Below, one piece after another: positions 7,923 through 62,091 of a DNA stretch of 64,000 nucleotides; the stretch's first letter is position 1; every line of letters starts with the position of its first letter. The position numbers and the translations under genes are program-made. Source of the DNA: an uncultured virus (IMG/VR IMGVR_UViG_3300035668_000001) (lineage: Duplodnaviria; Heunggongvirae; Uroviricota; Caudoviricetes); the IMG/VR virus record IMGVR_UViG_3300035668_000001; one strand, written 5' to 3'. The notes under the pieces are model-generated. The model was not told the DNA's origin. It made no database searches and was given only the letters and a program-made list of their open reading frames with translations.

Positions 7923-7977
7923 TTGCCCACCCGGTAAACGCCATGTATGATTCGGGATGACCGGAGCGACCCGGTCA
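7923..7977 (+). promoter_or_regulatory. Conserved promoter + AGCGAC hairpin
   Basis: TTGCCC-N17-TATGAT containing TAAACGCCATG; TGACCGG-AGCGAC-CCGGTCA at 7958-7977. Confidence 0.75.
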
Positions 7978-8090
7978 CAGACCCCGGATCCGGCCGCGAC
8001 ACAACGGCTTCCCGCCGTTCATCCTCGCCGGGTTCGGACCCTACCCGGCAGGGACGCCGCGCGGGCCAGCGACACCGCGGACGTCCCGGA

Positions 8091-8408
8091 ATGGACGACC
8101 CGATGACGCACGGCCAGCACGACCTTGACAGGTGTGCGCCCAGCCCCCTCGACTGCCTCATCAACGGCGTCGGGATCCGGACGTTCTACTGCACCGACCA
8201 CCCGATGAGCATCGCCGCCGCGTACGTCGCGTTCGGCTACGACCCCCTCGAACGTCCCCTCGACTTGGCGCACATCACCGTGTGCCGCGACTGGACGCGC
8301 GCAATCATCCTCTCCTTGTCCCCCGCGGACCCCGCCGTCGACCACGCGTTCGCCGTCTACTACGCGCTCGACGCTCTGGCCGCCACCGCCGCAGGGCGCA
8401 GGTCGTGA
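8091..8408 (+). CDS. Hypothetical protein
   Basis: First gene of operon; stop overlaps next GTG; start uncertain (8091 or 8103). Confidence 0.5.
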   Translation: MDDPMTHGQHDLDRCAPSPLDCLINGVGIRTFYCTDHPMSIAAAYVAFGYDPLERPLDLAHITVCRDWTRAIILSLSPADPAVDHAFAVYYALDALAATAAGRRS

Positions 8409-9502
8409 CGACGCCGTTGGTCGTCACCGACCGGGACGACAACCGCCACTACACCCACCCGATCACCGGCCAGGTGATGGTGTCGGTCACGACCGTGATC
8501 TCCATGACCCAGTCGAAGCCTTGGCTGGCGCCGTGGCAGGTCCGGCTCACCCTCGAATGGGCACTCGCCAACCTTCACCTCCTCGACGACGGCACCCTGA
8601 GCCGCATCGACTTCGTGCGGCTCGCGAAGGACGCCGGCGCGCGGGCCCGCGACATCAAGGCCGACACCGGGCAGTACGCCCACGACGTCATCGAGGCCCT
8701 CATCTTGTGGGCGGCCACCCCCGGCGGCTCGGAGATCGCGCTGCCCGTCATCCCCGACCACCTCGTCGGGCAGTACATGGACGGCCCCCCGGAGCCGGGC
8801 GAGACGGGCATCCTCGTCGAGGACTTCGCCGACGTCGCGATCACCGGGTTCACCGCGTTCGTCACCGACTTCGACCCACAGTTCACCGCATCGTCGATGC
8901 CCGTGTTCCACCCGGAGCTCGGCGTCGCCGGAACGTTGGACTTCATGGCGCGGTTCCTGGTGTTCGGCGACCAGTGCGTCGACGTCAAGACGGGCAAGCA
9001 CCTCACCGACGTGCAGGAGCAGTTGGCCGCATACCGGCGGATGACCGAGTGCCAGTTGCCGCTCGGGCAGGTCGAGCCGATGCCGCCGACTGACGGCGGG
9101 ATGGTGCTGCACCTGCGACCGGAGTACCGCCACGGGTACCGGCTCATGCAGGTCCCGGCCGCCGACGACGTCGTCGCCTGGAACTCGTTCCGCCGCGCCT
9201 TGCTCCTCACGCAGGAACGATCCGGCCGCAAGCCCAAGCCGGGGCGAGTCTTGTACCCGCCACTCCCGGACGGCTCCCAGCCGCTGCCGCTGCTCGTCGA
9301 CCTCGACGGGGAAGTGCACGGCCGTGTCCGTAACCCGCTGATCCGCGAGATCGGCGACGACACGCGGGTCGGCGACCTCACCGGGTTCACCGACGACGAC
9401 CTGCTCGCAGTCAAGGGCCTCGGCCCGAAGGCGCTCGGCGCCATCGACACGCTCCTCGCCGACTACGGGCTCACCCGGGTCCAGAAGGGGGAGGTGGCTT
9501 GA
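8405..9502 (+). CDS. PD-(D/E)XK exonuclease (RecE/Cas4-like) with C-terminal RNAP alpha-CTD-like HhH domain
   Basis: SVTTVI...KPWLAPW, AGTLD, VDVKTG, QLAAY motifs; DLLAVKGLGPKAL tail. Confidence 0.75.
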   Translation: MTTPLVVTDRDDNRHYTHPITGQVMVSVTTVISMTQSKPWLAPWQVRLTLEWALANLHLLDDGTLSRIDFVRLAKDAGARARDIKADTGQYAHDVIEALILWAATPGGSEIALPVIPDHLVGQYMDGPPEPGETGILVEDFADVAITGFTAFVTDFDPQFTASSMPVFHPELGVAGTLDFMARFLVFGDQCVDVKTGKHLTDVQEQLAAYRRMTECQLPLGQVEPMPPTDGGMVLHLRPEYRHGYRLMQVPAADDVVAWNSFRRALLLTQERSGRKPKPGRVLYPPLPDGSQPLPLLVDLDGEVHGRVRNPLIREIGDDTRVGDLTGFTDDDLLAVKGLGPKALGAIDTLLADYGLTRVQKGEVA

Positions 9503-9503
9503 G

Positions 9504-10544
9504 ATGCCACTCCTCGACCAACAGCGCAAGTCGCAGCAGATCGGCCGCATCCGCATCGGCGTCAAGGTCACCACGCAGAACGGCAAGATCCGCCCGCAGA
9601 AGATCGACACGTTCCGCCTCACGACCGGGTCCCGGCACGCCGCAGACGCAGTCGCCGAACTCCTCGGCGGGACCGTCGCGGAGTGGGGCAAGCAGTGGGA
9701 GGTCATCACCGAGCGGGACACCCTGCTCGTCACCGTGCCGCCGCGGGACGGCGTCATCACCCAGTTCTACGAGATGTGGAACAAGGGCGGCTGCATCCGC
9801 CGCTGCGACTCGGTCCTCGAGCAGAAGTCGAACAAGCCGTGCATGTGCCCGTCCGACGGCATCCTGCGGTCCCAGCTCGCGAAGATGAACCCCCCGCAGG
9901 CGTGCAAGACGACGACCCGGCTGAACGTGATGATCCCCGACTTGCCCGGTTTGGGCGTGTGGCGGTTCGACACCGGCTCGTACTACGCGGCGCTCGAGAT
10001 GGGCGACATGGCGACGCTGTTGGAGACGGCCCGCGACAACGGGGTGTTCCTGCCCGCTGTGCTGCGCATCGACCAGAGGGAACGGATCTCCGACGGGAAC
10101 ACGACGCCGTACCCGGTCGTCGTCCTCGAGTCGACGGTGCCGTTCCGGGCGCTCGCGACAGGGGCACTCGCAGCGGGTGGGCTCGCCGCTCAGCTTCCCC
10201 CCGCCGCCGGCGACACCCTCAAGGCGATCACCGCTACGACTCCCCCCGCCCCCGCCCCCACGGCGGCATCTACGTCCCCGCACGCCGGGCCGGGACCGGA
10301 GGCACCGAACGCTCAGCAACTCGCGGACATGGCCGCCGCCGCGGTGAGTCGTGAGGAGATCCAACAGCTCGCGGCACTGTCCGAGCAGCACCTCCTCGCC
10401 GAGGACCACGTGTGCACCGACCAGGCCCGGGAGGTGTACGAGCCGCTTGACGAGTTCCTGCGCGACCGGTGGCGTCGGCTCCCGCGCACTGCGGACCTGA
10501 CCGACGACGACAGCGCGGAGCCGTCCGACGTGGGGGAGGAGTGA
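9504..10544 (+). CDS. Gp3-like / recombination directionality factor-like protein
   Basis: GRIRIG...KIDTFRLT, RRCDS, CKTTTRLNVMIPDLPGLGVWRFDTGS motifs; next to exonuclease. Confidence 0.7.
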   Translation: MPLLDQQRKSQQIGRIRIGVKVTTQNGKIRPQKIDTFRLTTGSRHAADAVAELLGGTVAEWGKQWEVITERDTLLVTVPPRDGVITQFYEMWNKGGCIRRCDSVLEQKSNKPCMCPSDGILRSQLAKMNPPQACKTTTRLNVMIPDLPGLGVWRFDTGSYYAALEMGDMATLLETARDNGVFLPAVLRIDQRERISDGNTTPYPVVVLESTVPFRALATGALAAGGLAAQLPPAAGDTLKAITATTPPAPAPTAASTSPHAGPGPEAPNAQQLADMAAAAVSREEIQQLAALSEQHLLAEDHVCTDQAREVYEPLDEFLRDRWRRLPRTADLTDDDSAEPSDVGEE

Positions 10545-10861
10545 TGCCCCGCCACACGCACCCCGTCGTCGAGCCGAAGAAGCGGCGGCACAACCGGCAC
10601 ATCGTGCCCGGCACCTGCCCCGCCGGGGGGAAGCCGGGCTTCACCACCTACGGCGCGGCCAACAAGGTCGTGCGCCGCGGCGGTGGTGGTGGCGGCGTCT
10701 ATTGGTGCACCGCGTGCGGCGCCTGGTCGTACACCCGCTACACGCAAGCCGAGTGGAACGCCTTGTCTGCGAAGCGGCTCCTGCTCGCCGAACAGTTCCA
10801 CCGGGGCCGCGCGGCCGCGTTGCGGCGTCGCGCCGCCGACACCCGAAAGGACGTTGCGTGA
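10544..10861 (+). CDS. Hypothetical Zn-finger protein
   Basis: CPAGGK...YWCTACGAW. Confidence 0.55.
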   Translation: MPRHTHPVVEPKKRRHNRHIVPGTCPAGGKPGFTTYGAANKVVRRGGGGGGVYWCTACGAWSYTRYTQAEWNALSAKRLLLAEQFHRGRAAALRRRAADTRKDVA

Positions 10862-16947: not shown

Positions 16948-16965
16948 CGTCTGAGCGACCGGACG
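16948..16965 (+). promoter_or_regulatory. AGCGAC-loop hairpin
   Basis: CGTCTG-AGCGAC-CGGACG (one G-U pair), intergenic. Confidence 0.55.
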
Positions 16966-17515: not shown

Positions 17516-19174
17516 ATGACGACCGCCACCGTCGAGCTGTACGCCGACATCCTCGCCCGCGCCGAAGACCACGCCGTCTGGCGGGTCCTCCGCCGACTCT
17601 TCTGGATGGTGTCCGACGACGGCACCCTCCACCGCCCACCCCGCAACGCCGAGCTCGCCGAACTGGCCGGGGTGTCCGCCCGATCCGTCACCCGTGCCCG
17701 CGCACTACTCCGCGAAACCGAAGGCGTCGAGTACATCCCCCACCACCGGTACGACCCGCCCCGATACCGGTTCCTCCGCCACCCGCAGGGTCGCCACGAG
17801 GGTCGCCGCCAGGGTCGCCACACACGCGCGTTCCAGGTTTTGAACGAGTGCAACGACCACATAGACGCGCTCGCGACCGACGTCGCACGCCGGCGGCGGG
17901 AAGCCGTTCCCGGCAGTCCGTGGAACGAGGCAGGGATCAGCGCCTGCCTTCGGCGCGCCGTCGCCCTTGGCGTCGGGCCCGAACGGCTCCGCCTCATCGC
18001 CTTCGACGCCGCCTCCGACCCCAACGTGAAGACCCCCGGCGTCATCGCCGCCGACGGATTCCGTCAACGTGTCACCCCCACCCCGCGCCACACCCCACCC
18101 CCGGCCAGTCCACCCGCCGGGCGCATCACCGCCGACGAGTTCGCCCGCCTCAAGCCCGCCGACCAAGCCCGACTCGTCCGCCTCGGCCTCGCCCCCGTTA
18201 CCTACGAGTCACCGGCGCCTGTGCCGGTGACCGATCGGGAACCGGGGGCGGCCGGGGACGGTAGTGCCAGTCCAGAGGTAGACCCGCGCGTGAGCGACCA
18301 CGCGCTACCCGATCTCGTGGAGGACCCGTGTATCCCGTCCCTGAGTGCGCCGCCCCCGGATCCCGGTGGTGGGACGCCGCTCGGCACGTCTGCGCCGTCG
18401 TGTCGTGCGCCTTCCGCGGGCGGCACGTCCCGGCCCCGTGCCAGTGCGCGCACCACACCGACACGCGCACGCTCGTCCAGGCCCCCACTTCCTGTGTCCG
18501 ATGCGGACGCCCGCTGCTCCGTCTCGTGCCGCAGTGATCAAGCGACGCGTCCCGCTCGAACGGGGCGCCGGCCCGGCCCGGAGGACGCCGTTGGCGGTGA
18601 CGTCGCCACTGCGCGCGCGGCCGATGCCCGCGTGTCGGGAGGATGGTTGCGCGCGCGCGGCGACGACACGGAAGCGTGGTCTGTGCGCGCGGCACGACCG
18701 GCCGGCGCGCGCAACGGTGCGCGTGACGGTGCGCACGGCGGTGCGCACGGCGGGGATCCCGGCGCCGATCCGCGCGCTCGTGCTGGTGCGCGCGGCCGGG
18801 CTGTGCGAGGGATGCGGCGGCCTGCTGGACGACACGGGCACACATCTGCATCACCGGATCCGGCGCCGCGACGGCGGGCACACCCTCGACAACCTGGTGG
18901 CGTTGCACCCGCTGTGTCACGTCCTGGGCCCGCTGGCCGTGCACGAGCGGACGAAGTGGGCGCGCGCGCGGGGGTTGACGGTGCGCGTGGCCGCCGACGT
19001 GTCAGCGGCGCCGCTGATCCTGCCGTCGGGGCAGGTCGTGTTGTTGGACTCGCACCGGCCGGTGTACATCGCCGCGGCGTGAAGGTCTCGATCACGGGAC
19101 GCCTCACGGGCATCCTGGGACGGTTCTGTGCGCTACGCGCGTCAGGGCAAGGACACCCCCCATTTAGGGTGTAG
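17516..19174 (+). CDS. HTH protein, possible replication initiator (true 3' end uncertain)
   Basis: NAELAELAGVSARSVTRARALL HTH; after about 18230 the frame is low complexity and overlaps two better genes. Confidence 0.5.
   Translation: MTTATVELYADILARAEDHAVWRVLRRLFWMVSDDGTLHRPPRNAELAELAGVSARSVTRARALLRETEGVEYIPHHRYDPPRYRFLRHPQGRHEGRRQGRHTRAFQVLNECNDHIDALATDVARRRREAVPGSPWNEAGISACLRRAVALGVGPERLRLIAFDAASDPNVKTPGVIAADGFRQRVTPTPRHTPPPASPPAGRITADEFARLKPADQARLVRLGLAPVTYESPAPVPVTDREPGAAGDGSASPEVDPRVSDHALPDLVEDPCIPSLSAPPPDPGGGTPLGTSAPSCRAPSAGGTSRPRASARTTPTRARSSRPPLPVSDADARCSVSCRSDQATRPARTGRRPGPEDAVGGDVATARAADARVSGGWLRARGDDTEAWSVRAARPAGARNGARDGAHGGAHGGDPGADPRARAGARGRAVRGMRRPAGRHGHTSASPDPAPRRRAHPRQPGGVAPAVSRPGPAGRARADEVGARAGVDGARGRRRVSGAADPAVGAGRVVGLAPAGVHRRGVKVSITGRLTGILGRFCALRASGQGHPPFRV
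17787..17819 (+). repeat. 3 x AGGGTCGCC direct repeat, 12-bp period
   Basis: Copies at 17787, 17799, 17811. Confidence 0.75.
18286..18305 (+). promoter_or_regulatory. AGCGAC-loop hairpin
   Basis: GCGCGTG-AGCGAC-CACGCGC, upstream of GGAGG RBS and GTG 18328. Confidence 0.65.
18328..18537 (+). CDS. Small Cys-rich protein
   Basis: GGAGG RBS, CQCAHH and CVRC motifs, GTGA overlap with HNH gene. Confidence 0.5.
   Translation: MYPVPECAAPGSRWWDAARHVCAVVSCAFRGRHVPAPCQCAHHTDTRTLVQAPTSCVRCGRPLLRLVPQ
18534..19082 (+). CDS. HNH endonuclease
   Basis: CEGCG...HLHHRIRRRDGGHTLDNLVALHPLCH. Confidence 0.8.
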   Translation: MIKRRVPLERGAGPARRTPLAVTSPLRARPMPACREDGCARAATTRKRGLCARHDRPARATVRVTVRTAVRTAGIPAPIRALVLVRAAGLCEGCGGLLDDTGTHLHHRIRRRDGGHTLDNLVALHPLCHVLGPLAVHERTKWARARGLTVRVAADVSAAPLILPSGQVVLLDSHRPVYIAAA

Positions 19175-27203: not shown

Positions 27204-27220
27204 TAAACCTAGTGTATAGT
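27204..27220 (+). promoter_or_regulatory. Conserved promoter
   Basis: TAAACCTAGTG-TATAGT; hairpin 27230-27248 and AGCGAC at 27276 downstream. Confidence 0.65.
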
Positions 27221-27305
27221 TCGGGCGGGGTGGGCGATCTTCGCCCACTGCTACTGCCGCCCCCGACGCGTCAAGAGCGACCGCGACGAGAGAGGACAAA
27301 TCCCG

Positions 27306-28475
27306 ATGAGTCAGTTGACAGAGTCCATCCGGTGGCGGTTCGAGCGCCAGCCGACCGGCGGGCAGTCCGACGACGTCGAACTGCCCGGAAACTTCGGCGA
27401 GCCAACCGAAAGTGAAGCCCGCAACGACATGCCACTGGCGCCGACCCTGTTGGCCACGAAGCCAGTCCCCGTGCCGGCGGTGATCCGGCGCCCCCCGTCC
27501 CCGGCGAAAGTCACCGGCGAGCCCGAAACGCGCTGGGTGGACAAAGCACTCGACGCCGGATCCACACTCGGCATCACTGCGCTGATCGGCGTCGGATTCA
27601 CCGTCAGCTACAACACGCTGCGGAACGCCGCACTCGACGCCGGATTCTCGGAGTTCCTCGCCCCTGCCGTCCCACTGTCCTTCGACGTCGGGATCATCAC
27701 CCTGTCCCTCAAGGTTTACCGGCTGGCCCGGGAAGGCCGTACCGCTCCGATCCTCCGAGCGATCATCATCGCCCTGTCGATCGCGACCGTCGTCGCGAAT
27801 GCCGCCGCCGGCGACACCCTCGCTTCCCGGATCCTGCACGGTATCCCCTCGGCGATGTTCGTCATCTGTTTCGAGTCCATGATCGTGTCTGCGCGGCGGC
27901 ACGCGTTGCAGCGAATGGGCCTTGTCCCGCCCGCGCTGCCGCGCGTCCGACCGATCCGGTGGGTACTCGCCCCGAAGGCCACCGGTGGCGAGTGGAAGAG
28001 GATGGTCCTCGCGCAGAACGACGCGCACACCCGGCGCGTCGAAGACCTCGAGTACCTGCTCGCCGAGTACGAGGCGTACGAGACGCACGCGCGCCTCGAG
28101 GAGGCGCGCGCGGAAGCCGCGCGGGAAGCTGACCGGGAGCGGGCGCGGGCCGCGCGCGAGGCCGCGCGCGCGGCAAACCAGGGCACGCCCGCCGCGCATC
28201 CCGCGCACGACGCCGACCCGATGCGCGCGCCCGCCGTGCGCGCGGGCGCGGACGACGGGGTCGACCTGTCTCGGTGGACCGACCTGATGCGCGAGGCGTA
28301 CCCGACGTACGCGCGGCTGCGCGACGAGGGCCAGCGGTGCGCGGGCGTGGACGTCCACAGGGCGTCACAGACGACTGCGTCCGAGTCGCAGGTGCGTCGG
28401 TGGATGAACCCCTTCGCCGCCCGGTACGACACCGAAGCCCGGGAGAGGGACGCCGGGGAGCTGCGGGTCGTGTAG
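27306..28475 (+). CDS. DUF2637-family membrane protein (actinomycete mobile elements)
   Basis: GFTVSYNTLR...AVPLSFDVGII, four TMs, RWVLAP motif. Confidence 0.7.
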   Translation: MSQLTESIRWRFERQPTGGQSDDVELPGNFGEPTESEARNDMPLAPTLLATKPVPVPAVIRRPPSPAKVTGEPETRWVDKALDAGSTLGITALIGVGFTVSYNTLRNAALDAGFSEFLAPAVPLSFDVGIITLSLKVYRLAREGRTAPILRAIIIALSIATVVANAAAGDTLASRILHGIPSAMFVICFESMIVSARRHALQRMGLVPPALPRVRPIRWVLAPKATGGEWKRMVLAQNDAHTRRVEDLEYLLAEYEAYETHARLEEARAEAAREADRERARAAREAARAANQGTPAAHPAHDADPMRAPAVRAGADDGVDLSRWTDLMREAYPTYARLRDEGQRCAGVDVHRASQTTASESQVRRWMNPFAARYDTEARERDAGELRVV

Positions 28476-28623: not shown

Positions 28624-28815
28624 TTACACCTTCGGAGGGACCGGGGCTGAGGTCCAGCCCTTCCCGATGGGGATGAGGTAGGCGACGGTTACGCCGTCCA
28701 CCTTCGCGACCATGATCCCCGTGTGGGGGAATCGACGGGCCGGTTCGATCATGTACTCGACGCCGTCGAGAACGACCGTCTTGTGCGCCTTGTGGGCCTG
28801 AGCCGTGGTCGCCAT
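28624..28815 (-). CDS. Hypothetical protein
   Basis: GGGAGG RBS and conserved promoter upstream. Confidence 0.65.
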   Translation of the reverse strand: MATTAQAHKAHKTVVLDGVEYMIEPARRFPHTGIMVAKVDGVTVAYLIPIGKGWTSAPVPPKV

Positions 28816-28837
28816 CGGTCTGCCCTCCCGGGGGGTG

Positions 28838-28895
28838 TTGTCGGTGTCGCTCCCGACAAACCCAAACTATACACGGGGTTTACCACACAGGTCAA
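28838..28895 (-). promoter_or_regulatory. Conserved promoter + AGCGAC hairpin (minus strand)
   Basis: TTGACC-N18-TATAGT with TAAACCCCGTG; TTGTCGG-gAGCGACa-CCGACAA. Confidence 0.8.
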
Positions 28896-32191: not shown

Positions 32192-32470
32192 GGGTGGCTT
32201 CGCGACCTGGGGACAGGATGGGTTTACGGTCGAGGCGTGGCGGGTGAGCGACCCCGGCACCGAGTACCCGATCCGAACAGGAGGCTTTCCTTCCGCCGTC
32301 CCGCTCGATGAACCCACCGCAAGACGCCCGTCTCCGAAGCCGCCTGACCCCCGCGGCTGACCCCCTCCGGAGACGGGCGTCGTGCTGTCGGGACTGGCCA
32401 CTTCCGCGCGGGGCCGCGAAGTCTCTGTTGCCGTCGAAACCTGGCCGACCGAGACCCCTTCCCCGGTGTA

Positions 32471-32516
32471 TAAACCCCGTGTACACTTCGAGTGAAGGCG
32501 GAACAGCGACACCGCC
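32471..32516 (+). promoter_or_regulatory. Conserved promoter + AGCGAC hairpin
   Basis: TAAACCCCGTG-TACACT; GGCGG-aacAGCGACa-CCGCC. Confidence 0.75.
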
Positions 32517-32540
32517 ACCGCGCCGATCGAGGAGGACACG

Positions 32541-32879
32541 ATGGCCGCAGCAGACGTCACCGAGCGGGTCGAGTGGAGCCGGGACGAGGCCATCGCCGCG
32601 ATCCGCAAGGCGCTGCGCGCCCGCAGCGGGCTGACGTGGAGCGTCACCGGCGGCCGCGGCACCGGTTGGGGCTGGATCACCATCACCGCCCCGCCGGCGC
32701 GCCGCACCGCTCACGGCGACATGACCGACGACGATGCCAGGCAGCTCCACGCGATGCTCGGACTGCCCAACCGGTCGCGGCAGTTCGTGTTGGTGCCCGC
32801 CAGTGCGGCGCACCGCCGGGAGTACGTGGCCCGCGCCGAAGGCCTCCCCGTCACCGCGACGCCCGCGTACTGGGACTGA
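32541..32879 (+). CDS. Hypothetical protein
   Basis: GAGGAGG RBS. Confidence 0.7.
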   Translation: MAAADVTERVEWSRDEAIAAIRKALRARSGLTWSVTGGRGTGWGWITITAPPARRTAHGDMTDDDARQLHAMLGLPNRSRQFVLVPASAAHRREYVARAEGLPVTATPAYWD

Positions 32880-32965: not shown

Positions 32966-33006
32966 TAAACCCCCTGTATGCTCAGGGGTGTCGGAAGCGA
33001 CCCGGC
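32966..33006 (+). promoter_or_regulatory. Conserved promoter + AGCGAC hairpin
   Basis: TAAACCCCCTG-TATGCT; GTCGG-aAGCGAC-CCGGC. Confidence 0.75.
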
Positions 33007-33052
33007 GAACCCGAAGGGCCGACCGGTGACCTACTCACCCAGGAGCGTTCCC

Positions 33053-33244
33053 ATGTTCACCTCCACTTCCACCAAACCGCTGCGCATCCGCCTCCTGCGC
33101 TTCCTGCTGCGGCACAGCGGAATCCAGATGTACGTCATCGGCGTCCCCGGCTACGCCTGGTCCGGCGACCGCGATGACGAGCCCAAGGCCTACTACGCGG
33201 AGTGGCTCCACGAGATCCCCGCCGACTACGACGCTGCCGCGTAA
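33053..33244 (+). CDS. Hypothetical protein
   Basis: AGGAG RBS downstream of promoter motif. Confidence 0.65.
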   Translation: MFTSTSTKPLRIRLLRFLLRHSGIQMYVIGVPGYAWSGDRDDEPKAYYAEWLHEIPADYDAAA

Positions 33245-33263: not shown

Positions 33264-33316
33264 TTGACTGGCCACTAAACCCCATGTACATTAAGGGTGT
33301 TGGGAGCGACACCAAC
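33264..33316 (+). promoter_or_regulatory. Conserved promoter + AGCGAC hairpin
   Basis: TTGACT-N17-TACATT with TAAACCCCATG; GTTGG-gAGCGACa-CCAAC. Confidence 0.85.
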
Positions 33317-33336
33317 CACGGCCCGGGGAGCAGACG

Positions 33337-33894
33337 ATGACCACCACGACGCAGACGATGACCGACCTCGAGCTCGGATACGAGATGCGGCGCACGCAGG
33401 ACCCGGCCGTACTCGCCGAGGTCCGGCGCCGCGGCTACGTCCTCGACGCTGCCGACACGGTCGTCGGCGCGCAGGTCCAGTCCGGTGAGCGGGTCGGTAC
33501 TGTCACCGAGATCCACGCCGACGGCGGTGTGACCGTCGACTGGGACACCACGGACGTCCCCGGGTGCCCCGGTAACCGCTACACCCGCTTCCTCGACCTC
33601 ACCGGCGGCGTGCTCAAGAACGCCCCGGCGCCCCGGCCCGTGGTCGAGCCGGCGATCGACTGGGACGCAGTCCTCCCCCGGATCAGCAAGCGGGTCCGCA
33701 TCGCCCCCATCCACATCTTCGCCGCCTCCGACCCGACCGACGTCGACGTCGACGAGGTGCCCGTGGTCGACTACGACAAGCAAGGCGAAGAGTGGGCGCG
33801 GACACAGGCTGCGACCCTCGTCGGCAACGGCACCGTCGGCCGACTCTTGCGCACCGAGACGCTGCGCTACCGCCCGTTCGTGCAGAACCGGTAG
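33337..33894 (+). CDS. Hypothetical protein
   Basis: GGGGAG RBS. Confidence 0.65.
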   Translation: MTTTTQTMTDLELGYEMRRTQDPAVLAEVRRRGYVLDAADTVVGAQVQSGERVGTVTEIHADGGVTVDWDTTDVPGCPGNRYTRFLDLTGGVLKNAPAPRPVVEPAIDWDAVLPRISKRVRIAPIHIFAASDPTDVDVDEVPVVDYDKQGEEWARTQAATLVGNGTVGRLLRTETLRYRPFVQNR

Positions 33895-34244: not shown

Positions 34245-34302
34245 TCCCGATCGGCGCCACGGGGGAGCGACCCCCGGTGCCCAACCCGAGAGAGAAGCGA
34301 TC

Positions 34303-35511: not shown

Positions 35512-35528
35512 TAAACCCCATGTACACT
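35512..35528 (+). promoter_or_regulatory. Conserved promoter; probable leaderless transcript
   Basis: TAAACCCCATG-TACACT, ATG 6 nt later, no RBS. Confidence 0.75.
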
Positions 35529-35534
35529 TTGGTT

Positions 35535-36023: not shown

Positions 36024-36041
36024 GCCGAGAGCGACCTCGGC
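36024..36041 (+). promoter_or_regulatory. AGCGAC-loop hairpin
   Basis: GCCGAG-AGCGAC-CTCGGC in a 54-bp intergenic gap. Confidence 0.7.
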
Positions 36042-36065
36042 CCGACCCGACAAGAGGCGCCCGAC

Positions 36066-36920
36066 ATGAGGGGCAACACGCACTTCATCACAGGGGTCAC
36101 CCTGTGGCTCGCCGCCACCCCCGCGGTCGACCTTGTCCACCGGCAGACACCGGCAGAGGTCGTCCTCTACGCGGTCGCGCTCGGCGGCACGGCGATGGTG
36201 TCCGACCTGGATCACCAGTCGTCGACGATCGCCTACACGTTCGGGTGGCGCACGTCCCGCCTGTGGCCGACCCGGCTCCGCTGGATGTCCGGGGGACCGA
36301 CCCGCATCTTGGCCCGCCTCGTCGGCCGGATCTTCGCCGGGCCCCGGAACGCGAAAGGGACCCGGCCCGGGCACCGATGGGGCACGCACTCGCTCCCGTT
36401 CGCGGTCGGCCTCGGCTTCCTCGTCCAGCTCGGCGTAGTCGCCGGGGCCGGGTGGACGGCCGCCGCCGCGGTCCTCGCCCTCGGCTTGGGTCTTGCCACG
36501 GTGGGGGAGAGGTGGGTCCCGAAGAAGCTGGGGGAGGGATGGGTGTCCTCCGCCGCCGTGTTCTGCATCGCCTGGGTGGCCGCGGTCCAGATCGGCTCGG
36601 CGTACGGCGTCGACTGGCGGTTCATCGGCCTCGTGTACGGCCTCGGGGTCATCGCCCACTGCCTCGGCGACTGGTGCACCCCGGAAGGGGTGCCGTGGTT
36701 CTGGCCGTTCAGCATGCGCCGGTTCGTGCTCGCCGAGGTCACGTTCACGTTCCGCGGCAAAGAACGGACCCTCAACTTGGCCTCCACCGGCGGGAAGCGG
36801 GAGACGGTGATCGCCGTGCTCCTGTCCATCACCGCAACCCTGCTCGCGGTCTGGCGCCTCGACTTGGGGCCGTCCGCCGAGTACCTGATCGCCGCGCTCG
36901 AATCCTTCGGCCGCGGCTAG
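36066..36920 (+). CDS. Membrane-bound metal-dependent hydrolase (YdjM family)
   Basis: GNTH, SDLDH, HRWGTHSL, HCLGDWCTPEGVPWFWP. Confidence 0.85.
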   Translation: MRGNTHFITGVTLWLAATPAVDLVHRQTPAEVVLYAVALGGTAMVSDLDHQSSTIAYTFGWRTSRLWPTRLRWMSGGPTRILARLVGRIFAGPRNAKGTRPGHRWGTHSLPFAVGLGFLVQLGVVAGAGWTAAAAVLALGLGLATVGERWVPKKLGEGWVSSAAVFCIAWVAAVQIGSAYGVDWRFIGLVYGLGVIAHCLGDWCTPEGVPWFWPFSMRRFVLAEVTFTFRGKERTLNLASTGGKRETVIAVLLSITATLLAVWRLDLGPSAEYLIAALESFGRG

Positions 36921-42580: not shown

Positions 42581-42623
42581 CAAACCCGGTGTACGTTCTG
42601 TGAGGCCCCGACAGCGACCCGGG
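42581..42623 (+). promoter_or_regulatory. Conserved promoter variant + AGCGAC hairpin
   Basis: CAAACCCGGTG-TACGTT; CCCG-acAGCGACc-CGGG. Confidence 0.6.
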
Positions 42624-42655
42624 CGTCCCGATCCCCCCGAAAGGGGTACCCGCGC

Positions 42656-42898
42656 GTGAGCGTGATCATCACCCGCACCGTCACCGCCGACACCTGGGCC
42701 GACCCGATCAAACAGAAGATCGTCCGGACCGGGATGGACACCGCGGCCGCACGCGACGCCTCCTCACGGAACCTCGACGTCGCCCCCTACCCGGACCCGA
42801 CGGAGAGGGTCCTTCCGGGGCAACCGGCCGTACCCGGGGGGAACACCGTCCCCCAACTGACGGTCATCCGCACATACCCGACCCGGGAGATCCCGTGA
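42656..42898 (+). CDS. Hypothetical protein
   Basis: AAAGGGG RBS, overlap with next gene. Confidence 0.55.
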   Translation: MSVIITRTVTADTWADPIKQKIVRTGMDTAAARDASSRNLDVAPYPDPTERVLPGQPAVPGGNTVPQLTVIRTYPTREIP

Positions 42899-44453: not shown

Positions 44454-44677
44454 CGGTGCGGTGGGCGGATCCGCGGGACGTGGCGCGCACGGTGGTCGCG
44501 CTGTTGATCGCCGCGGAGGTCGAACGGCTGCGCCGCCCGACGCTCGCGCGCCGGTATCGGCGGATGGCCGACGACATGGGCGCCGCGATCGACGAGTCGG
44601 CGGCGACGGTGCCGCTGGACGGAACAGAAGGGCACGCGCGCGCACTTCCACCGGCTGGTAAACCCCACGTACACTAG
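44450..44677 (+). CDS. Hypothetical protein
   Basis: GTGA overlap. Confidence 0.4.
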   Translation: MTVRWADPRDVARTVVALLIAAEVERLRRPTLARRYRRMADDMGAAIDESAATVPLDGTEGHARALPPAGKPHVH

Positions 44678-44699
44678 CGGTGTGGGGAGCGACCCCCAC
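44659..44699 (+). promoter_or_regulatory. Conserved promoter + AGCGAC hairpin
   Basis: TAAACCCCACG-TACACT; GTGGGG-AGCGAC-CCCCAC. Confidence 0.8.
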
Positions 44700-44721
44700 C
44701 CGAGCAGGGAGCTGGTTCCCG

Positions 44722-45108
44722 ATGACCGCTGTCCACACCGTGCTGCACCCCACCGCCCCGGCGCGTGACTTCGTCGACCCGCGCCTCGCCCTCGCCGTGG
44801 CCCGCGCCACCGGCGCCGACTACGTCCTGTCCGACTTCGGCGGCGAACGGCGCCTCACGTGGGGAGCGCTGAGCGACGTGCGCTGTACCGGCCAACTGAT
44901 CGCCCTCGCCGACAAGGCGGGCCCGATCCGTGCCGCCGACCTGCCCGACGGGTCGGTCGTCGCCAACGCGGCGAAGGCGTGGATCAAGACGCGCCCCGCC
45001 GGGGACACGCAGTGGTGCACCACCGCCGGTTCCCACGAGCACGACGTGCACGTCGACCGGGCTCTCGCCGACGGCGCCACCGTGCTGCGGTACGGGCAGG
45101 TGGCCTGA
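44722..45108 (+). CDS. Hypothetical protein
   Basis: AGGGAG RBS after motif. Confidence 0.65.
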   Translation: MTAVHTVLHPTAPARDFVDPRLALAVARATGADYVLSDFGGERRLTWGALSDVRCTGQLIALADKAGPIRAADLPDGSVVANAAKAWIKTRPAGDTQWCTTAGSHEHDVHVDRALADGATVLRYGQVA

Positions 45109-45146: not shown

Positions 45147-45190
45147 TAAACCCCATGTACGATAGTGGTGTGGGCGGGAGCGACCCCGCC
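45147..45190 (+). promoter_or_regulatory. Conserved promoter + AGCGAC hairpin
   Basis: TAAACCCCATG-TACGAT; GGCGGG-AGCGAC-CCCGCC. Confidence 0.8.
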
Positions 45191-45277
45191 GACCCGATGA
45201 GAGGACCCACCGATGGCCACTACCGGCATCTGCGTCCGCGGCCCGGTGTGCGAGTCGAACGACGGCCGTGGTCCGAC

Positions 45278-46440: not shown

Positions 46441-46482
46441 TAAACCCCGTGTACACTACGGGGTGTGGGGGAAGCGTCCCCC
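46441..46482 (+). promoter_or_regulatory. Conserved promoter + hairpin (loop variant AAGCGT)
   Basis: TAAACCCCGTG-TACACT; GGGGG-AAGCGT-CCCCC. Confidence 0.75.
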
Positions 46483-46498
46483 GGACAAGGAGCCCCCG

Positions 46499-47146
46499 AT
46501 GACCGACCAGGCAGCCCGGGTCACCGGCCTGGCCCAGCAGACCCCGGCCGAGATCGACTTCCAGCTCGCCGACATCTGGGACCGCTTCTACACCGCCCGC
46601 GACAAGCGCGACCAGCACCGCAAATGGCTGACCCAGATTGTCGAACGCCAGGAGGAAGTCGCCGCCGGCACGTACCGCGGCTTCTACACCGCCACCGAGG
46701 CGAAGCGGGACGCCGAGACGGTCGCCCGGATGGAGGCCAAGATCGCCTGGCTGGCCGCCGCGGCGCTGACGATCCTCGAAGAGACGGTGCCGTTCGACTC
46801 GGAGCATGTCCGCCGCAACGGCTGGACCCGCGCCTACTTGGTCGACAACAACGGCGGCCACGTCCACACGTCGATGAACTGCCGCACCTGCTTCCCGACG
46901 ACCCGCTTCAACTGGCTCCCACAGGTGTCGGGTTGGACTGAGGCGCAGGTCTTGGCCGAGGCCGGGAATTCGGCCTGCTCGGTCTGCTACCCGACCGGCC
47001 GCGTCAAGGGCAAGCGGAACGCGAACCTGCTGGACCGCCCGGACCGGATCGCCGAGCGGGAGGCCCGCGCCGCCGCGAAGGCCGAGCGTGAGGCGAAGAA
47101 GGCAGCGAAGGCCGGACGGCAGCAGACGGGACGGTACCCCCGATGA
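46499..47146 (+). CDS. Hypothetical protein with Zn-binding motif
   Basis: AAGGAG RBS; GGHVHTSMNCRTC...CSVCYP. Confidence 0.7.
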   Translation: MTDQAARVTGLAQQTPAEIDFQLADIWDRFYTARDKRDQHRKWLTQIVERQEEVAAGTYRGFYTATEAKRDAETVARMEAKIAWLAAAALTILEETVPFDSEHVRRNGWTRAYLVDNNGGHVHTSMNCRTCFPTTRFNWLPQVSGWTEAQVLAEAGNSACSVCYPTGRVKGKRNANLLDRPDRIAEREARAAAKAEREAKKAAKAGRQQTGRYPR

Positions 47147-48030: not shown

Positions 48031-48074
48031 TAAACCCCATGTATGCTGTGCGGGTACGGGAGCGACCCCGTACC
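48031..48074 (+). promoter_or_regulatory. Conserved promoter + AGCGAC hairpin
   Basis: TAAACCCCATG-TATGCT; GGTACGGG-AGCGAC-CCCGTACC. Confidence 0.85.
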
Positions 48075-48094
48075 GAAAGCGACGGAGGAACCCC

Positions 48095-48718
48095 ATGAAG
48101 ACCAAAGACCTCGCCACCGGCACCGTCTACGCGTGCAAGGTCAAGTACAGCAAACCGATGCAGGTCGTCCTCCTCGACCTCGACCAGCTCTACACGACCA
48201 CCTTTGCCGCCCGCACCGGTCGCGCCGACCGGACGACCCGCCTGCTCGAGAAGGCCCGCGCCGGCGCCCGCCCGCAGGTCGCCTCGAGCTACATGGGTGC
48301 CGCGATCGGCTATCTGGTCGCCGCCCCGCTCACCCACTACTACGACGACGACGGCCCGGTGGCCGACGTCGGCCAGCTCTTGGCCGTCACCGCCGACCAG
48401 GCCGTCACCGAGCTGGCGTGCGAAGGCGAGCTTCGCGCCGCCGGCATCCAGGTCTTCGTCGTCCAGCCCCGCGACCTGATGGGCGAATGGGACACGGTCG
48501 CCGCCGCCGAACAGACCGCCCACGACGCCGACTTGGCCGCCGCGCAGGCTGCCAAGGCCTACGCGGCCGCCGCCAAGGCCCGCGCCGAGGCCGCGGTCGA
48601 CGCCCTAGCCGACCTCGGCATCGACGCCTGCGTCGACTACGCCCGTTTCGGCGACGGGTACGTGGTTACCCTCACCGCCGCCGCCATCGTCAAGCTCGCC
48701 GCCACCCGCGCGGCCTGA
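48095..48718 (+). CDS. Hypothetical protein
   Basis: GGAGG RBS. Confidence 0.7.
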   Translation: MKTKDLATGTVYACKVKYSKPMQVVLLDLDQLYTTTFAARTGRADRTTRLLEKARAGARPQVASSYMGAAIGYLVAAPLTHYYDDDGPVADVGQLLAVTADQAVTELACEGELRAAGIQVFVVQPRDLMGEWDTVAAAEQTAHDADLAAAQAAKAYAAAAKARAEAAVDALADLGIDACVDYARFGDGYVVTLTAAAIVKLAATRAA

Positions 48719-49232: not shown

Positions 49233-49280
49233 TAAACCCCGTGTATGATCGGTGGTGCGGAGGTCGGTAGCGACCCGCCC
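49233..49280 (+). promoter_or_regulatory. Conserved promoter + AGCGAC (weak stem)
   Basis: TAAACCCCGTG-TATGAT; GGTCGG-tAGCGAC-CCGCCC. Confidence 0.7.
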
Positions 49281-49303
49281 CCGCCACCCGATGGGAGAGC
49301 GTC

Positions 49304-49558
49304 ATGGACGTCACCGAAACCACCACGAACATCGCGGCCCGCACCCGGCAGGCAGTAGGCAACGTCGTCGCCGTCCTGTGGCGCCCGATGGTCATGGCCG
49401 CCGGGATCGCACTCATCCTCTTCGGAGTGGGCGTCGACCCGACCTGGCCACTGATCGCCTACAGCGTGTTCGCCGCCGCCGTCATCGCCGTCTTCATCAT
49501 CGCGTCGACCATGCGGCACCGGCGGGACATGGCCGAATGGAAGGCGACGAACCGGTGA
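49304..49558 (+). CDS. Small 2-TM membrane protein
   Basis: GGGAG RBS; two TMs. Confidence 0.65.
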   Translation: MDVTETTTNIAARTRQAVGNVVAVLWRPMVMAAGIALILFGVGVDPTWPLIAYSVFAAAVIAVFIIASTMRHRRDMAEWKATNR

Positions 49559-50490: not shown

Positions 50491-50543
50491 CCCACCGCCT
50501 AAATGGCGTGTATGTTCTACGTGCCGGGACAGCGACCCCGGCA
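50487..50543 (+). promoter_or_regulatory. Conserved promoter variant + AGCGAC hairpin
   Basis: TTGACC-N18-TATGTT with TAAATGGCGTG; TGCCGGG-acAGCGAC-CCCGGCA. Confidence 0.8.
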
Positions 50544-50564
50544 ACCCGACGAAGGAGCGCCGTC

Positions 50565-50999
50565 ATGGCGACCAGCTCTGACCGACCATCCTCGACCCGG
50601 CTTCTGGCCGCGGTCACCGAAGCCCTCGACGACGCCGAACGGGCGTTGACGATGACCACCGCTTGCGGCACCTGGAAGTCCGGAGGGACCGCCGCCTGGG
50701 GTGCCGGCAGCGTCCGGCACTCCACTACCGACGACCTGCTCGGGACGTTCACGTACCGGGCCGACGCCGAGCACGCCGTCCGCTGGCAGCCCAACCGGAT
50801 CCGCGACCTGATCGCCGCCGAACGGGCCGAACTGGCGATGATCGCCCTGATGCGTGACCCGGACAGCGGCATCTACGACTCGTGGGCCGCCGCCGGGCAC
50901 CTGTACCGCATGGCCGTCCGCTGGGGACTCGCCCCTGACCGGTTCGCCGTCACAGACATGACCGCCGCCGACGCGCCCGACACCGACGGTGCGGCATGA
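50565..50999 (+). CDS. DUF6221-like protein
   Basis: AAGGAG RBS; AEHAVRWQPNRIRDLIAAER. Confidence 0.55.
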   Translation: MATSSDRPSSTRLLAAVTEALDDAERALTMTTACGTWKSGGTAAWGAGSVRHSTTDDLLGTFTYRADAEHAVRWQPNRIRDLIAAERAELAMIALMRDPDSGIYDSWAAAGHLYRMAVRWGLAPDRFAVTDMTAADAPDTDGAA

Positions 51000-55034: not shown

Positions 55035-55085
55035 TAAACGGCGTGTACAATTGCGGTAGGTGCCGGTGGGGTGAGCGACCACCCC
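55035..55085 (+). promoter_or_regulatory. Conserved promoter variant + AGCGAC hairpin
   Basis: TAAACGGCGTG-TACAAT; GGGGTG-AGCGAC-CACCCC. Confidence 0.8.
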
Positions 55086-55113
55086 GGGACGCACCGCCGG
55101 AAGGACGTCCGTC

Positions 55114-55464
55114 GTGGACTACTCGCGCACCGAGGCCGCCGATACAGCGGCCCTCGACGACCTGCTCCGCGCCGCCGGGTCATCGGCCGCCGAGCTGCCG
55201 CGCACCCGATCCCCGAAGGGGAACCCGATGCCCCGTGCCATGGTTTTCACCGTCCTCATCGTCTTTCTCATCGCCTACGGGCTGTGGCACCTCGCCGCCC
55301 ACGCGTGGTCCCACGCAGCTCGCCGTGTCGACGACGCCATCGCCAGCATCGACGACCCCGACGACGGCTTCGACCACTGGGTCGAACGCCACCTCGCCGT
55401 CACCCCCGGCTGCGACACCCCCGGCTGCGTCACGTGCGCACTCGAGCGGGAAGGCGCCCGGTGA
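55114..55464 (+). CDS. Hypothetical membrane protein
   Basis: One TM; start may be 55228. Confidence 0.5.
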   Translation: MDYSRTEAADTAALDDLLRAAGSSAAELPRTRSPKGNPMPRAMVFTVLIVFLIAYGLWHLAAHAWSHAARRVDDAIASIDDPDDGFDHWVERHLAVTPGCDTPGCVTCALEREGAR

Positions 55465-61206: not shown

Positions 61207-61255
61207 CCGGACCGCCCCCATGGGTACTACCGGTGTCGCGAAGGAGTGACCGTCC

Positions 61256-61552
61256 ATGCAGCAGCACGGAACGACGGAGGAGGACCCGCTCGAACAGCTT
61301 CGTGATGCTGCGGCTGAGGTGGCGGAACGGCACGGTGCATGGAAGGAGGCGGTCCGTCAAAGGGACCGCCTCCTTCGCAAGCTCCGGAAGGCGGGAGTCG
61401 CCGGTGTCGACTGCGCCCGCGCCGCCGGCGTCTCGGATGCCTTCGTCTCGAAGATCGCGGGGACACGCCGCACCCGCAAACCGGGGGGTATCCGGCGACT
61501 CCGGCCCCGGCGCCGCGACATGACGGCCGACCTCGAGGGAGATTCCCCGTGA
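61256..61552 (+). CDS. HTH-like protein
   Basis: AAGGAG RBS; GVDCARAAGVSDAFVSKI. Confidence 0.6.
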   Translation: MQQHGTTEEDPLEQLRDAAAEVAERHGAWKEAVRQRDRLLRKLRKAGVAGVDCARAAGVSDAFVSKIAGTRRTRKPGGIRRLRPRRRDMTADLEGDSP

Positions 61553-61732
61553 CGTGGATCCGCGCCCTGCTCGACTTCGCCCACCGCCTGCCCTGGCCCG
61601 GCCCGTTCACCCGGCCTGTCCACAGCCACCGGCACCCTCCCGGCCGGCACCGCCGCGAGGTGGGGGACGCACGTCGATGGTGACGCCGATCCGCCCGGGA
61701 CGTTAGACCTACTACTGGTCCACCGTGTCCCC

Positions 61733-62020
61733 GTGGATCTGAGCGAGATGGCGGGCGAGTGGGACGCGGCCGAGGTCCGCGCCGCCGCCCGGCCGTGGTG
61801 GCGGCGCTGGTTGTCCCGCGACCCGTACGTCATGTGGTGGCCGTGCCGCCCCACGATCCTCGGGCAGACGGGGAAGCCGGTGACCCGCGGGGGCCAACCG
61901 TTGGTCGCGTTCCGGTTGTCGCAGGTCCGCGGGATGCGTGCCTACTTCCGGGCCGCGGTCCGGGACGACGAAGGCATCGACCCGGACCGGGACGTTACGC
62001 ACGGCGCCGGGACAAGGTGA
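61733..62020 (+). CDS. Hypothetical protein
   Basis: ORF; start uncertain. Confidence 0.4.
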   Translation: MDLSEMAGEWDAAEVRAAARPWWRRWLSRDPYVMWWPCRPTILGQTGKPVTRGGQPLVAFRLSQVRGMRAYFRAAVRDDEGIDPDRDVTHGAGTR

Positions 62021-62044
62021 CCGTGCGCCGCCCCCGTCTACTGC

Positions 62045-62091
62045 ACAACCCCGTGTACGCTGGCCCCCGCCGGTGGGTGAGCGACCCCGCC
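62045..62091 (+). promoter_or_regulatory. Conserved promoter variant + AGCGAC hairpin
   Basis: ACAACCCCGTG-TACGCT; GGTGGG-tgAGCGAC-CCCGCC. Confidence 0.65.

Follow-up and report, generated by a model that had tools for sequence, protein, structure and literature searches.

The nut site of phage lambda consists of the boxB hairpin and boxA and is bound by the N protein together with Nus factors, with parallels in antitermination being LoaP with its leader hairpin and HK022 put. In regulation by CsrA, a second single-stranded copy of the recognized motif is found near the Shine-Dalgarno (SD) sequence, and occupancy controls translation or stability. Here, we analyze a family of repeated leader hairpins with the loop AGCGAC in DNA of an uncultured virus of the Caudoviricetes (IMG/VR record IMGVR_UViG_3300035668_000001). 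The stretch under study, referred to as the window, represents 64,000 bases of a 140,409-base source contig, so that scans of the window leave about 76 kb outside.

Two further systems of repeated signals in mobile genomes are relevant for comparison. The promoter-early stem-loop (PeSL) cassettes of T4-type phages have stems made of a G-run and a C-run, are situated within or around the promoter and act as terminators; sequence conservation among the recombining units extends over about 100 bp (Arbiol et al., 2010; PMC2839356). For Cluster K mycobacteriophages, start-associated sequences (SAS) are described as a 13-nt word overlapping the ribosome-binding site and extended SAS (ESAS) as conserved arms with a variable spacer (Pope et al., 2011; PMC3203893).

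Copies of the AGCGAC-loop hairpin

An initial annotation of the window, made from the letters alone, had listed 20 sites of this hairpin, and the sequences given are present at all of them. A covariance model (R1) was built from 19 of the 20 sites and scanned on both strands with filters off. The seeds, 18 on the plus and one on the minus strand, score 23.0-36.3 bits versus 16.6 bits for the best other match, bearing in mind that seeds fit their own model by construction. Hence, the proposed number of about 20 copies holds for 19, as judged from this score gap, but not for the site at 8060, a 5-bp stem with the 10-nt loop GCCAGCGACA which R1 matches at 8056-8093 with a marginal 12.6 bits, that is, at noise level. 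The two deviating copies are also as announced: the weak one at 49262 shows either a 3-bp regular stem or a longer irregular fold, and the variant loop AAGCGT at 46467 is borne by a GGGGG/CCCCC stem. With a hold-out model (R2), built from ten copies and giving weight to the downstream word CCCGA treated below, five of nine left-out copies score 29.7, 25.2, 21.9, 21.2, and 17.7 bits versus 14.6 bits for the best non-family match.

The bare hexamer AGCGAC is not enriched in the window, with 48 occurrences seen versus 58.1 ± 6.4 expected. Hairpins with this loop are enriched over shuffled sequence, with 25, 19, and 13 cases for minimum stem lengths of 4, 5, and 6 bp, respectively, versus means of 9.9, 4.2, and 1.8 (± 1.2 for the last) and maxima of 19, 10, and 5 in 200 dinucleotide shuffles. 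With stems of 5 bp or more, AGCGAC comes out on top of the 4096 exact hexaloops, having eight occurrences versus six for the next best; GTCGCT also reaches eight, these being the AGCGAC hairpins seen from the opposite strand. About five more AGCGAC hairpins with stems of 5-6 bp are located in coding or antisense sequence (20731, 44872, and 59951 and, on the minus strand, 35275 and 3102), which is as many as the shuffles predict. The AGCGAC-loop hairpin family is real and statistically solid.

Stem covariation and loop conservation

Across the 19 copies, the stems vary and yet stay complementary, corroborating a central claim of the initial annotation. Paired cells make up 65.8% versus 50.1 ± 3.3% in shuffles, and 33 cells are changed on both sides versus 15.2 in shuffles, with none out of 500 shuffles reaching either value. 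The covariation score amounts to 0.417 compared to 0.168 in shuffles, and upon shifting the partner by 1-3 columns it does not exceed 0.193. In the loop, A, G, C, and G of the first four columns as well as the final C are invariant in 19/19 copies and the fifth position (A) in 18/19, whereas the 5' arms have on average only 2.9 of 7 positions in common between copies, suggesting that the loop is constrained beyond folding needs. AGCGAC contains the GNRA-type tetraloop GCGA, and its invariant flanking bases A1 and C6 cannot pair together.

Stems comprise 3-8 bp at energies from -1.5 to -14.1 kcal/mol and are not followed by a T-tract, and a terminator scan reported none of the hairpins; for these reasons, they do not qualify as intrinsic terminators. 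A complement of the loop in cis, allowing for a pseudoknot or other cis pairing, was found in 0/19 copies upstream and in 0/19 downstream, so that a partner in trans would find the loop unoccupied. In some minimum free energy folds, the G-rich discriminator pairs with ACCC and thereby lengthens the stem; this was rejected, as the discriminator is upstream of the presumed transcription start. Among 171 module pairs, the longest identical tract is 17 nt and the median 8 nt, and the freely varied stems look as if they were kept different.

Position relative to start codons and the CCCGA word

All 19 copies lie in leaders, and the loop is in sense orientation to the downstream gene in 19/19, as had been proposed, including the sole minus-strand copy, which precedes a minus-strand gene. 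The distance between the first loop base and the start codon is 30-44 nt in 15 of the 19 copies. The remaining four are 7965 with 126 nt, 32996 with 57 nt to an ATG (a GTG is found at 30 nt), and 16954 and 32247, both without a resolved start. Following the hairpin, the order is CCCGA word, SD sequence, which varies, and start codon.

CCCGA is present within 30 nt of the loop in 12/19 copies (in nine as ACCCGA) versus a background of 7.8% (P about 1.5e-9). A count of all 1024 5-mers past the 19 copies puts CCCGA first, with CCGAT also at the head of the list, and CCGAY is found in 13/19 copies versus a background of 19.6%. The CCCGA position of the 48061 copy is occupied by another AGCGAC, which is unpaired (48078). 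CCGA is also observed directly before the start codon (CCGATG) at 28815, 44722, 45219, 46499, and 27306; the second conserved word can thus abut the start codon rather than precede the SD sequence. Sense orientation, distance to the start codon, the asymmetric loop and the CCCGA word together argue for a hairpin that most likely acts as RNA.

Promoter box and predicted transcription start

The statement that most copies are placed between a promoter and a ribosome-binding site was borne out, with a recognizable promoter ahead of 14/19. However, three features had escaped the initial annotation, namely a conserved box in the promoter spacer, the CCCGA box and the five copies between cistrons that lack a promoter. 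The spacer box TAAACCCCGTGTA occurs in 16 copies in promoter context, 14 of which precede hairpins, and when allowing for up to three mismatches it is found 21 times versus 4.8 expected (0/100 shuffles reach this number). Its last two bases open the TAnnnT -10 hexamer, and a weak -35 (TTGACC, TTCCCC or similar) is located 17-18 nt upstream. The promoters are of the sigma-70 type, and an independent consensus scan recovers three of them. The box is near-palindromic (TAAAC-N3-GTGTA). Because the spacer is conserved although host RNA polymerase needs no such conservation, and in view of the near-palindrome, the box probably serves a DNA-binding regulator as its operator. An open reading frame (ORF) on the minus strand at 7278-7856 (third-position G+C 0.83) shows a sub-threshold HTH_23 match and is oriented divergently to the first box promoter (7935); its product is a possible candidate for the DNA-binding regulator of the box. 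Weak helix-turn-helix matches are also present in 26647-27198 and 34997-35356. Reading AGCGAC as a -10 of the extracytoplasmic function (ECF) type with TAAAC as -35 was discarded, as the spacing in the counted copy, 28851, is about 27 nt and not the 16-17 nt of the ECF consensus.

At 35512, a box promoter is leaderless, with the ATG starting on the 7th nt past the -10, from which a transcription start about 7 nt after the -10 can be deduced. The distance from the -10 to the stem is 5-6 nt in seven of the 14 promoter-linked copies and 9-15 nt in the other seven, so that the hairpin is predicted to coincide with the mRNA 5' end or to be not more than about 10 nt away. Five hairpins lack the box (16954, 18293, 32247, 34266, and 36030), four of them following the stop codon of an upstream gene (34266 by 16 nt and 36030 by 12 nt), and, conversely, two box promoters, the leaderless 35512 and 27204, lack an AGCGAC hairpin. 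Therefore, the hairpin seems to track translation starts that are uncoupled from the upstream gene, not promoters, and the promoter-less copies favor translation or stability over a promoter-linked event.

Individual modules

In the following, the coordinates of box and -10 are given jointly, and bits are the R1 scores of the seeds. The first module (7935..8093, plus strand) comprises the box/-10 at 7935-7951 (TAAACGCCATGTA, TATGAT), a hairpin at 7958-7977 (7 bp, AGCGAC), the marginal hairpin at 8060-8079 and an ATG at 8091 (29.3 bits). The least supported core copy (16948..16965, plus strand) is a hairpin only, with 6 bp including one G-U pair and AGCGAC but without box, CCCGA or a clear nearby start (25.4 bits, 13.3 when held out). 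A promoter-less module at 18286..18330 (plus strand) shows the hairpin at 18286-18305 (7 bp), ACCCGA at 18307-18312, the SD sequence GGAGGA and a GTG at 18328 (26.4 bits). At 36.3 bits, the best match is the sole minus-strand module (28813..28882), having the -35 TTGACC, the box/-10 at 28866-28882 (TAAACCCCGTGTA, TATAGT), a 7-bp hairpin at 28838-28859 with the loop GAGCGACA, the SD sequence GGGAGGG and the ATG at 28815 of the minus-strand gene 28815..28624; the promoter scan gives 10/12 and the held-out score is 13.9 bits.

All further modules are on the plus strand. Just past the gene of an FtsK-like protein, a promoter-less module (32241..32272) carries a hairpin at 32241-32256 (4 bp, loop TGAGCGAC), ACCCGA at 32266-32271 and AGGAGG, with no convincing ORF after it (25.2 bits). 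The module at 32471..32543 has the box/-10 at 32471-32487 (TACACT), a hairpin at 32497-32516 (5 bp, 10-nt loop AACAGCGACA), GCCGAT, the SD sequence GAGGAGG and an ATG at 32541 (23.0 bits, unlisted in the hold-out). It is followed by 32966..33055, with the box/-10 at 32966-32982 (TATGCT), a hairpin at 32989-33007 (6 bp, two G-U pairs), ACCCGA at 33009-33014 and either ATG 33053 or GTG 33026 as start (27.8 bits), and by 33276..33339, with the -35 TTGACT, the box/-10 at 33276-33292 (TACATT), a hairpin at 33299-33316 (5 bp, loop GAGCGACA), the SD sequence GGGGAG and an ATG at 33337 (27.5 bits, 11.2 when held out). Two further promoter-less modules are intercistronic. The first (34260..34305), beginning 16 nt past the upstream stop, shows a 5-bp hairpin at 34260-34276, ACCCGA at 34284-34289 and an ATG at 34303 (33.2 bits), and the second (36024..36068), 12 nt past the upstream stop, a 6-bp hairpin at 36024-36041, CCCGA twice (36041-36050) and an ATG at 36066 (28.0 bits, 29.7 when held out).

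In the region downstream, the module at 42581..42658 consists of the box/-10 at 42581-42597 (CAAACCCGGTGTA, TACGTT), a 4-bp hairpin at 42607-42623, CCCGA at 42627-42631 and a GTG at 42656 (23.1 bits). The module at 44659..44724 has the box/-10 at 44659-44675 (TACACT), a 6-bp hairpin at 44682-44699, CCCGA at 44699-44703 and an ATG at 44722 (31.9 bits, 25.2 when held out), and that at 45147..45221 the box/-10 at 45147-45163 (TACGAT), a 6-bp hairpin at 45173-45190, ACCCGA at 45192-45197 and an ATG at 45219 (34.6 bits). The variant-loop module (46441..46501) combines the box/-10 at 46441-46457 (TACACT) with the GGGGG/CCCCC hairpin at 46467-46482 (AAGCGT), the SD sequence AAGGAG and an ATG at 46499 (25.4 bits, 17.7 when held out). 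The longest stem, 8 bp at 48053-48074, belongs to the module at 48031..48097, which has the box/-10 at 48031-48047 (TATGCT), the unpaired AGCGAC at 48078-48083, the SD sequence GGAGGA and an ATG at 48095 (32.1 bits). In the weak-hairpin module (49233..49306), the box/-10 at 49233-49249 (TATGAT) precedes AGCGAC at 49269-49274 on the 3-bp or irregular stem, ACCCGA at 49286-49291 and an ATG at 49304 (23.4 bits, 21.9 when held out).

The last three modules with hairpins are 50500..50567, with the -35 TTGACC, the box/-10 at 50500-50516 (TAAATGGCGTGTA, TATGTT), a 7-bp hairpin at 50522-50543, ACCCGA at 50544-50549, the SD sequence GAAGGAG and an ATG at 50565 (25.6 bits); 55035..55116, with the box/-10 at 55035-55051 (TAAACGGCGTGTA, TACAAT), a hairpin at 55067-55086 (7 bp, one G-U pair), the SD sequence GGAAGGA and a GTG at 55114 (30.5 bits, 21.2 when held out); and 62045..62126, with the box/-10 at 62045-62061 (ACAACCCCGTGTA, TACGCT), a hairpin at 62074-62093 (6 bp, two G-U pairs), CCCGA at 62097-62101, the SD sequence GAGGAAG and as start either GTG 62124 or an ORF from 62144 (25.5 bits).

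Of the box promoters without AGCGAC hairpin, the one at 27204..27308 shows the box/-10 at 27204-27220 (TAAACCTAGTGTA, TATAGT) and, 9 nt on, a hairpin at 27230-27248 (7-8 bp) with the loop ATCTT, followed by the ATG at 27306 of a DUF2637 gene. An unpaired AGCGAC at 27276 is also observed downstream of this promoter. In the leaderless case (35512..35537), the box/-10 at 35512-35528 (TACACT) is separated by 6 nt from the ATG at 35535 of a 158-aa orphan.

Gene content of the window

The window has a G+C content of 70% throughout, and a tRNA gene was not found in its 64,000 bases. Genes were called by third-position G+C and annotated with PHROGs and Pfam. Positions 1-5456 encode siphovirus-type tail proteins (tape measure C-terminus, Dit-like and minor tail proteins). 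From about 7.9 kb to the window end, nearly all genes are on the plus strand and encode, among others, a VirB4-like AAA_10 ATPase (19888-22608), an FtsK/SpoIIIE-like protein (29795-32191), an M23 peptidase, a DUF2637 protein, a Gp3-like recombination directionality factor, a ParB-like protein, DNA methyltransferases, an SNF2 helicase and a cluster of QueC/D/E and GTP cyclohydrolase, besides numerous small orphan genes. The VirB4-like protein shows 29-35% identity to proteins of actinobacterial plasmids, and phage records were unmatched. The sole sequencing run with this stretch is a soil metagenome DNA run, possibly the source. Based on the plasmid matches, the conjugation-type genes and the soil run, the region from 7.9 kb on is read as part of a conjugative-type mobile element with phage-like genes from an uncultured soil actinobacterium.

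Left of 7935, 0 of the 16 promoter boxes judged real and 0 of the 19 hairpins are found, and here the tail genes abut the conjugation-type gene set. The segments 1-5456 and 7900-64000 may be separated by the boundary of two elements or may represent two regulatory regimes in one hybrid element. At 39008-42572, a 7-deazaguanine (queuosine-precursor) set is encoded, comprising a GTP cyclohydrolase-like gene, QueC, QueD, a CxxCxxCC-domain protein, QueE and FolE, which hints at an element-borne modification of DNA (or RNA) bases; a transglycosylase of the TGT/DpdA type was not recognized in the window. The sole strong terminator-like structure in 27-64 kb, located at 34908-34941 immediately downstream of a gene that ends at 34893, has a stem of 14 bp and a T-rich tail.

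Search for relatives of the motif

An exact 15-mer of the promoter box was found at 20 loci in viral contigs, none with an AGCGAC hairpin behind it. Since these loci are mostly of low G+C (0.37-0.63) and hairpinless, they are regarded as chance matches. The composite pattern of box, AGCGAC and CCCGA gave no match in viral contigs, one in genomes and none in metagenome contigs. This single match, a Luminiphilus metagenome-assembled genome with 58% G+C, contains one box and no hairpin and was dismissed as chance. For the FtsK-like protein, the viral contigs did not contain a relative, and the protein collection returns only the protein itself. For the VirB4-like protein, the nearest relatives, from 80 loci, share 36-42% identity. 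Scanning these 80 loci (809,746 bases) with R1 at default filters resulted in nothing above 21.9 bits. The eight best matches were rejected, four of them being one conserved membrane-protein coding stretch and none a promoter-hairpin-start module. Tallies of hairpin loops and repeated 10-mers in the same loci did not reveal an analogous private motif. The repeated words in three of these loci are tandem coding repeats unrelated to the motif (L024, 2370-3000, period about 126 bp; L049, 2329-3295, about 24 bp; and L074). Comparing one whole module with plasmids and phages by blastn gave matches at E >= 0.8 or none, and megablast of 30000-50000 against phages did not give a match.

Proposed function and alternatives

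The initial annotation had suggested an RNA recognition element for an element-encoded protein, defining a regulon and acting like a lambda boxB/nut site or as a translation/stability switch. The recognition element and the regulon stand in so far as a gene-oriented action, most likely as RNA, and a co-regulated set also marked with the promoter box are indicated, whereas the nut analogy is not specifically supported. Building on the observed copies, covariation, orientation and spacing and on the two additional conserved words, we infer the existence of a factor, its nature and effect, the action as RNA and the transcription start. In view of the invariant, non-pairing A and C around GCGA, the single-stranded word by the ribosome-binding site and the independence from promoters, we consider, at somewhat less than even confidence, that the motif is a two-part RNA site in mRNA leaders of the mobile element, bound by a candidate trans-acting factor which controls translation or stability. 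Transcription would start about 7 nt past the -10 of a host-type (sigma-70/HrdB-like) promoter with the box TAAACCCCGTGTA in its spacer, and the leader hairpin would then present the invariant AGCGAC irrespective of the stem sequence. Within 0-20 nt past the hairpin, (A)CCCGA/CCGAY would be offered as a single-stranded word, ahead of SD sequence and start codon. Loop and CCCGA word together would represent the binding site of one trans-acting factor, encoded by the element or the host, which, at the edge of the ribosome landing zone, might set translation and/or mRNA lifetime of about 19 units at once. The more specific proposal that AGCGAC and CCCGA form the operator of a novel RNA-binding regulator, giving rise to a post-transcriptional regulon atop the DNA-level regulon of the TAAACCCCGTGTA box, is put forward only tentatively.

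Several observations weigh against a two-part site for a dedicated factor. R2 misses four of the nine held-out copies, namely 28851 (13.9 bits), 16954 (13.3 bits), 33305 (11.2 bits), and 32505 (unlisted). The hairpin at 16954 stands alone and is the weakest member of the 19, and 28851, 33305, and 32505 have longer loops (G- or AAC-AGCGAC-A) and lack CCCGA, yet show a promoter box upstream. In total, CCCGA is absent from 7/19 copies. The promoter at 27204 belongs to the same family and is followed by a 5' hairpin with another loop, ATCTT, so that the hairpin there may also have a loop-independent role. G-U pairs are indeed present, with six in four copies, but they do not translate into overall extra stability of the sense strand, as had been implied: summed fold energies are -207.0 kcal/mol for sense and -207.0 kcal/mol for antisense, and the sense fold is better in 11/19 copies. 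The covariation derives wholly from paralogous copies in one element, with motif-bearing relatives not found in the searches; such copies are near-independent for stems but give no view over evolutionary time. Both the transcription start and transcription itself are deduced from sequence. Finally, the binding protein was not found, with no RNA-binding, N, Q or NusG-type family among 82 (Pfam) or 77 (PHROGs) window translations, and Atlas look-ups for two genes, one of 63 aa on the minus strand and one of 112 aa at 32541, did not yield a usable lead.

Some of these points would suit a passive 5' structure, which shields the mRNA 5' end from decay of the RNase E/J type or insulates the ribosome-binding site, its loop being kept for folding (GCGA as GNRA) and no dedicated factor being required. 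The stem at the presumed +1 in seven of the 14 promoter-linked copies, the unrelated loop behind the 27204 promoter and the lack of a binder in Pfam scans and Atlas look-ups are all compatible with this explanation. However, a stabilizer does not need a fixed loop, yet A1 and C6 are invariant in 19/19 copies while the stems diverge, and the co-conserved CCCGA is left unexplained. In addition, five copies are operon-internal and not at a primary 5' end, and in the other seven promoter-linked copies, with the stem 9-15 nt past the -10, a single-stranded 5' tail would remain. Altogether, we regard a merely passive role as unlikely, albeit worth serious consideration.

Less probable still is a nut-like processive antitermination, in which a protein or the RNA itself would load onto RNA polymerase at the hairpin plus CCCGA and confer resistance to termination. 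A small leader hairpin with a GNRA-containing loop, an adjoining linear word and promoters close by would fit such a system, and the operon-internal, promoter-less copies could be reloading sites. Nevertheless, the 19 sites, compared to two in lambda, are mostly ahead of short operons, and terminator-like sites are not in excess over shuffles (7 vs 6.2 and 3 vs 4.8), with only one strong T-tailed stem-loop (34908-34941). Moreover, CCCGA does not resemble the U-rich boxA, antitermination would not call for a fixed distance to the start codon, and N, Q or NusG/KOW families were not detected among the 82 translations scanned with Pfam. Antitermination is considered improbable.

A role at the DNA level, with the hairpin in single-stranded or supercoiled DNA being met by a nuclease, recombinase or primase in conjugative transfer or in cassette exchange of the PeSL or integron attC type, appears very improbable: although the element has conjugation-type genes (VirB4-like ATPase, FtsK-like, DUF2637, M23 peptidase), some HUH-nuclease origins likewise combine variable stems with a conserved loop, the stability of sense and antisense folds is the same and many flanked genes are orphans, the minus-strand copy follows its gene and not the strand, the fixed SD/start-codon distance and CCCGA suit RNA better, the shared tracts are too short for homologous exchange of the PeSL type, and a recombinase or HUH family was not found among the window proteins with Pfam and PHROGs.

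Provided that the loop serves for docking, a large mobile element would have about 19 of its units controlled jointly through RNA, with a very small code of six bases in the loop and five in the linear word. For high-GC bacteria, this would represent a control device both compact and portable. Such a system would also illustrate in which way actinobacterial conjugative or phage-like elements time early or establishment genes, which are mostly of no known function. In addition, long direct repeats can be avoided in a multi-copy signal, as the freely varying stems illustrate. Were the hairpin only a 5' stabilizer, it would still be a clean and unusually systematic example, though an ordinary one.

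Comparison with known systems

The initial annotation had not recognized the motif as a described one, and this holds after searching the whole window against Rfam 15, with 0 matches at gathering thresholds. When permitting E values up to 5 over 32000-36200 and 42500-50700, which include 14 of the 19 copies, five chance-level matches are obtained, four of them off all hairpins and the fifth, Xist_exon1 (14.1 bits, 49200-49295), lying across the weak 49269 copy. In the limited collection of literature searched, a description of an AGCGAC motif was not found.

Like lambda nut, the system shows a small leader-RNA hairpin, the specificity of which would reside in the loop, here purine-rich and containing GCGA, and not in the stem, as well as a conserved linear word beside the hairpin, near promoters of a mobile element. 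In contrast to the two copies of nut, there are 19 copies here, with a 6-nt loop AGCGAC having invariant flanking A and C, and the linear word is CCCGA, located 3' of the hairpin at a fixed spacing to the start codon. A U-rich boxA-like word does not appear in the 5-mer count downstream of the 19 copies, an N-like gene was not found among the scanned window translations, and terminators are not in excess.

As with the PeSL cassettes, the system places a repeated sigma-70-type promoter, a stem-loop and an SD sequence before small, mostly orphan genes of a mobile genome, and 14 modules of the window indeed possess box promoter, hairpin, SD sequence and start codon. The modules differ from PeSL units in the variable stem with invariant loop, in the position of the hairpin 5-15 nt past the -10 without a T-tract, and in a longest shared tract of 17 nt versus conservation over about 100 bp. 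Resemblance to SAS/ESAS lies in repeats at translation starts of some non-structural genes in an actinobacterial mobile genome, oriented with transcription and with an inverted repeat upstream of a conserved word. The word here is different in having only 5-6 nt (CCCGA) and being placed upstream of a varying SD sequence rather than overlapping it, and variable arms (2.9 of 7 positions shared) with an invariant loop are the reverse of the ESAS pattern.

With the operator hairpins of CsrA/RsmA and of the iron-responsive element and iron regulatory protein (IRE/IRP), the family has in common a short conserved loop motif presented on any stem in many mRNAs. However, the motifs are AGCGAC and CCCGA instead of GGA or CAGUGN, and all targets are on one mobile element; a protein family of the CsrA or IRP type was not found among the scanned window translations. 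The 5'-terminal stabilizer stem-loops, such as in the E. coli ompA leader, are similar in providing a hairpin at or near the mRNA 5' end, but they are not known to be sequence-specific in the loop or to be accompanied by a conserved word. Hence, the AGCGAC hairpins, while outside Rfam and the literature searched, are best filed as a variant among the repeated leader/operator-hairpin systems.

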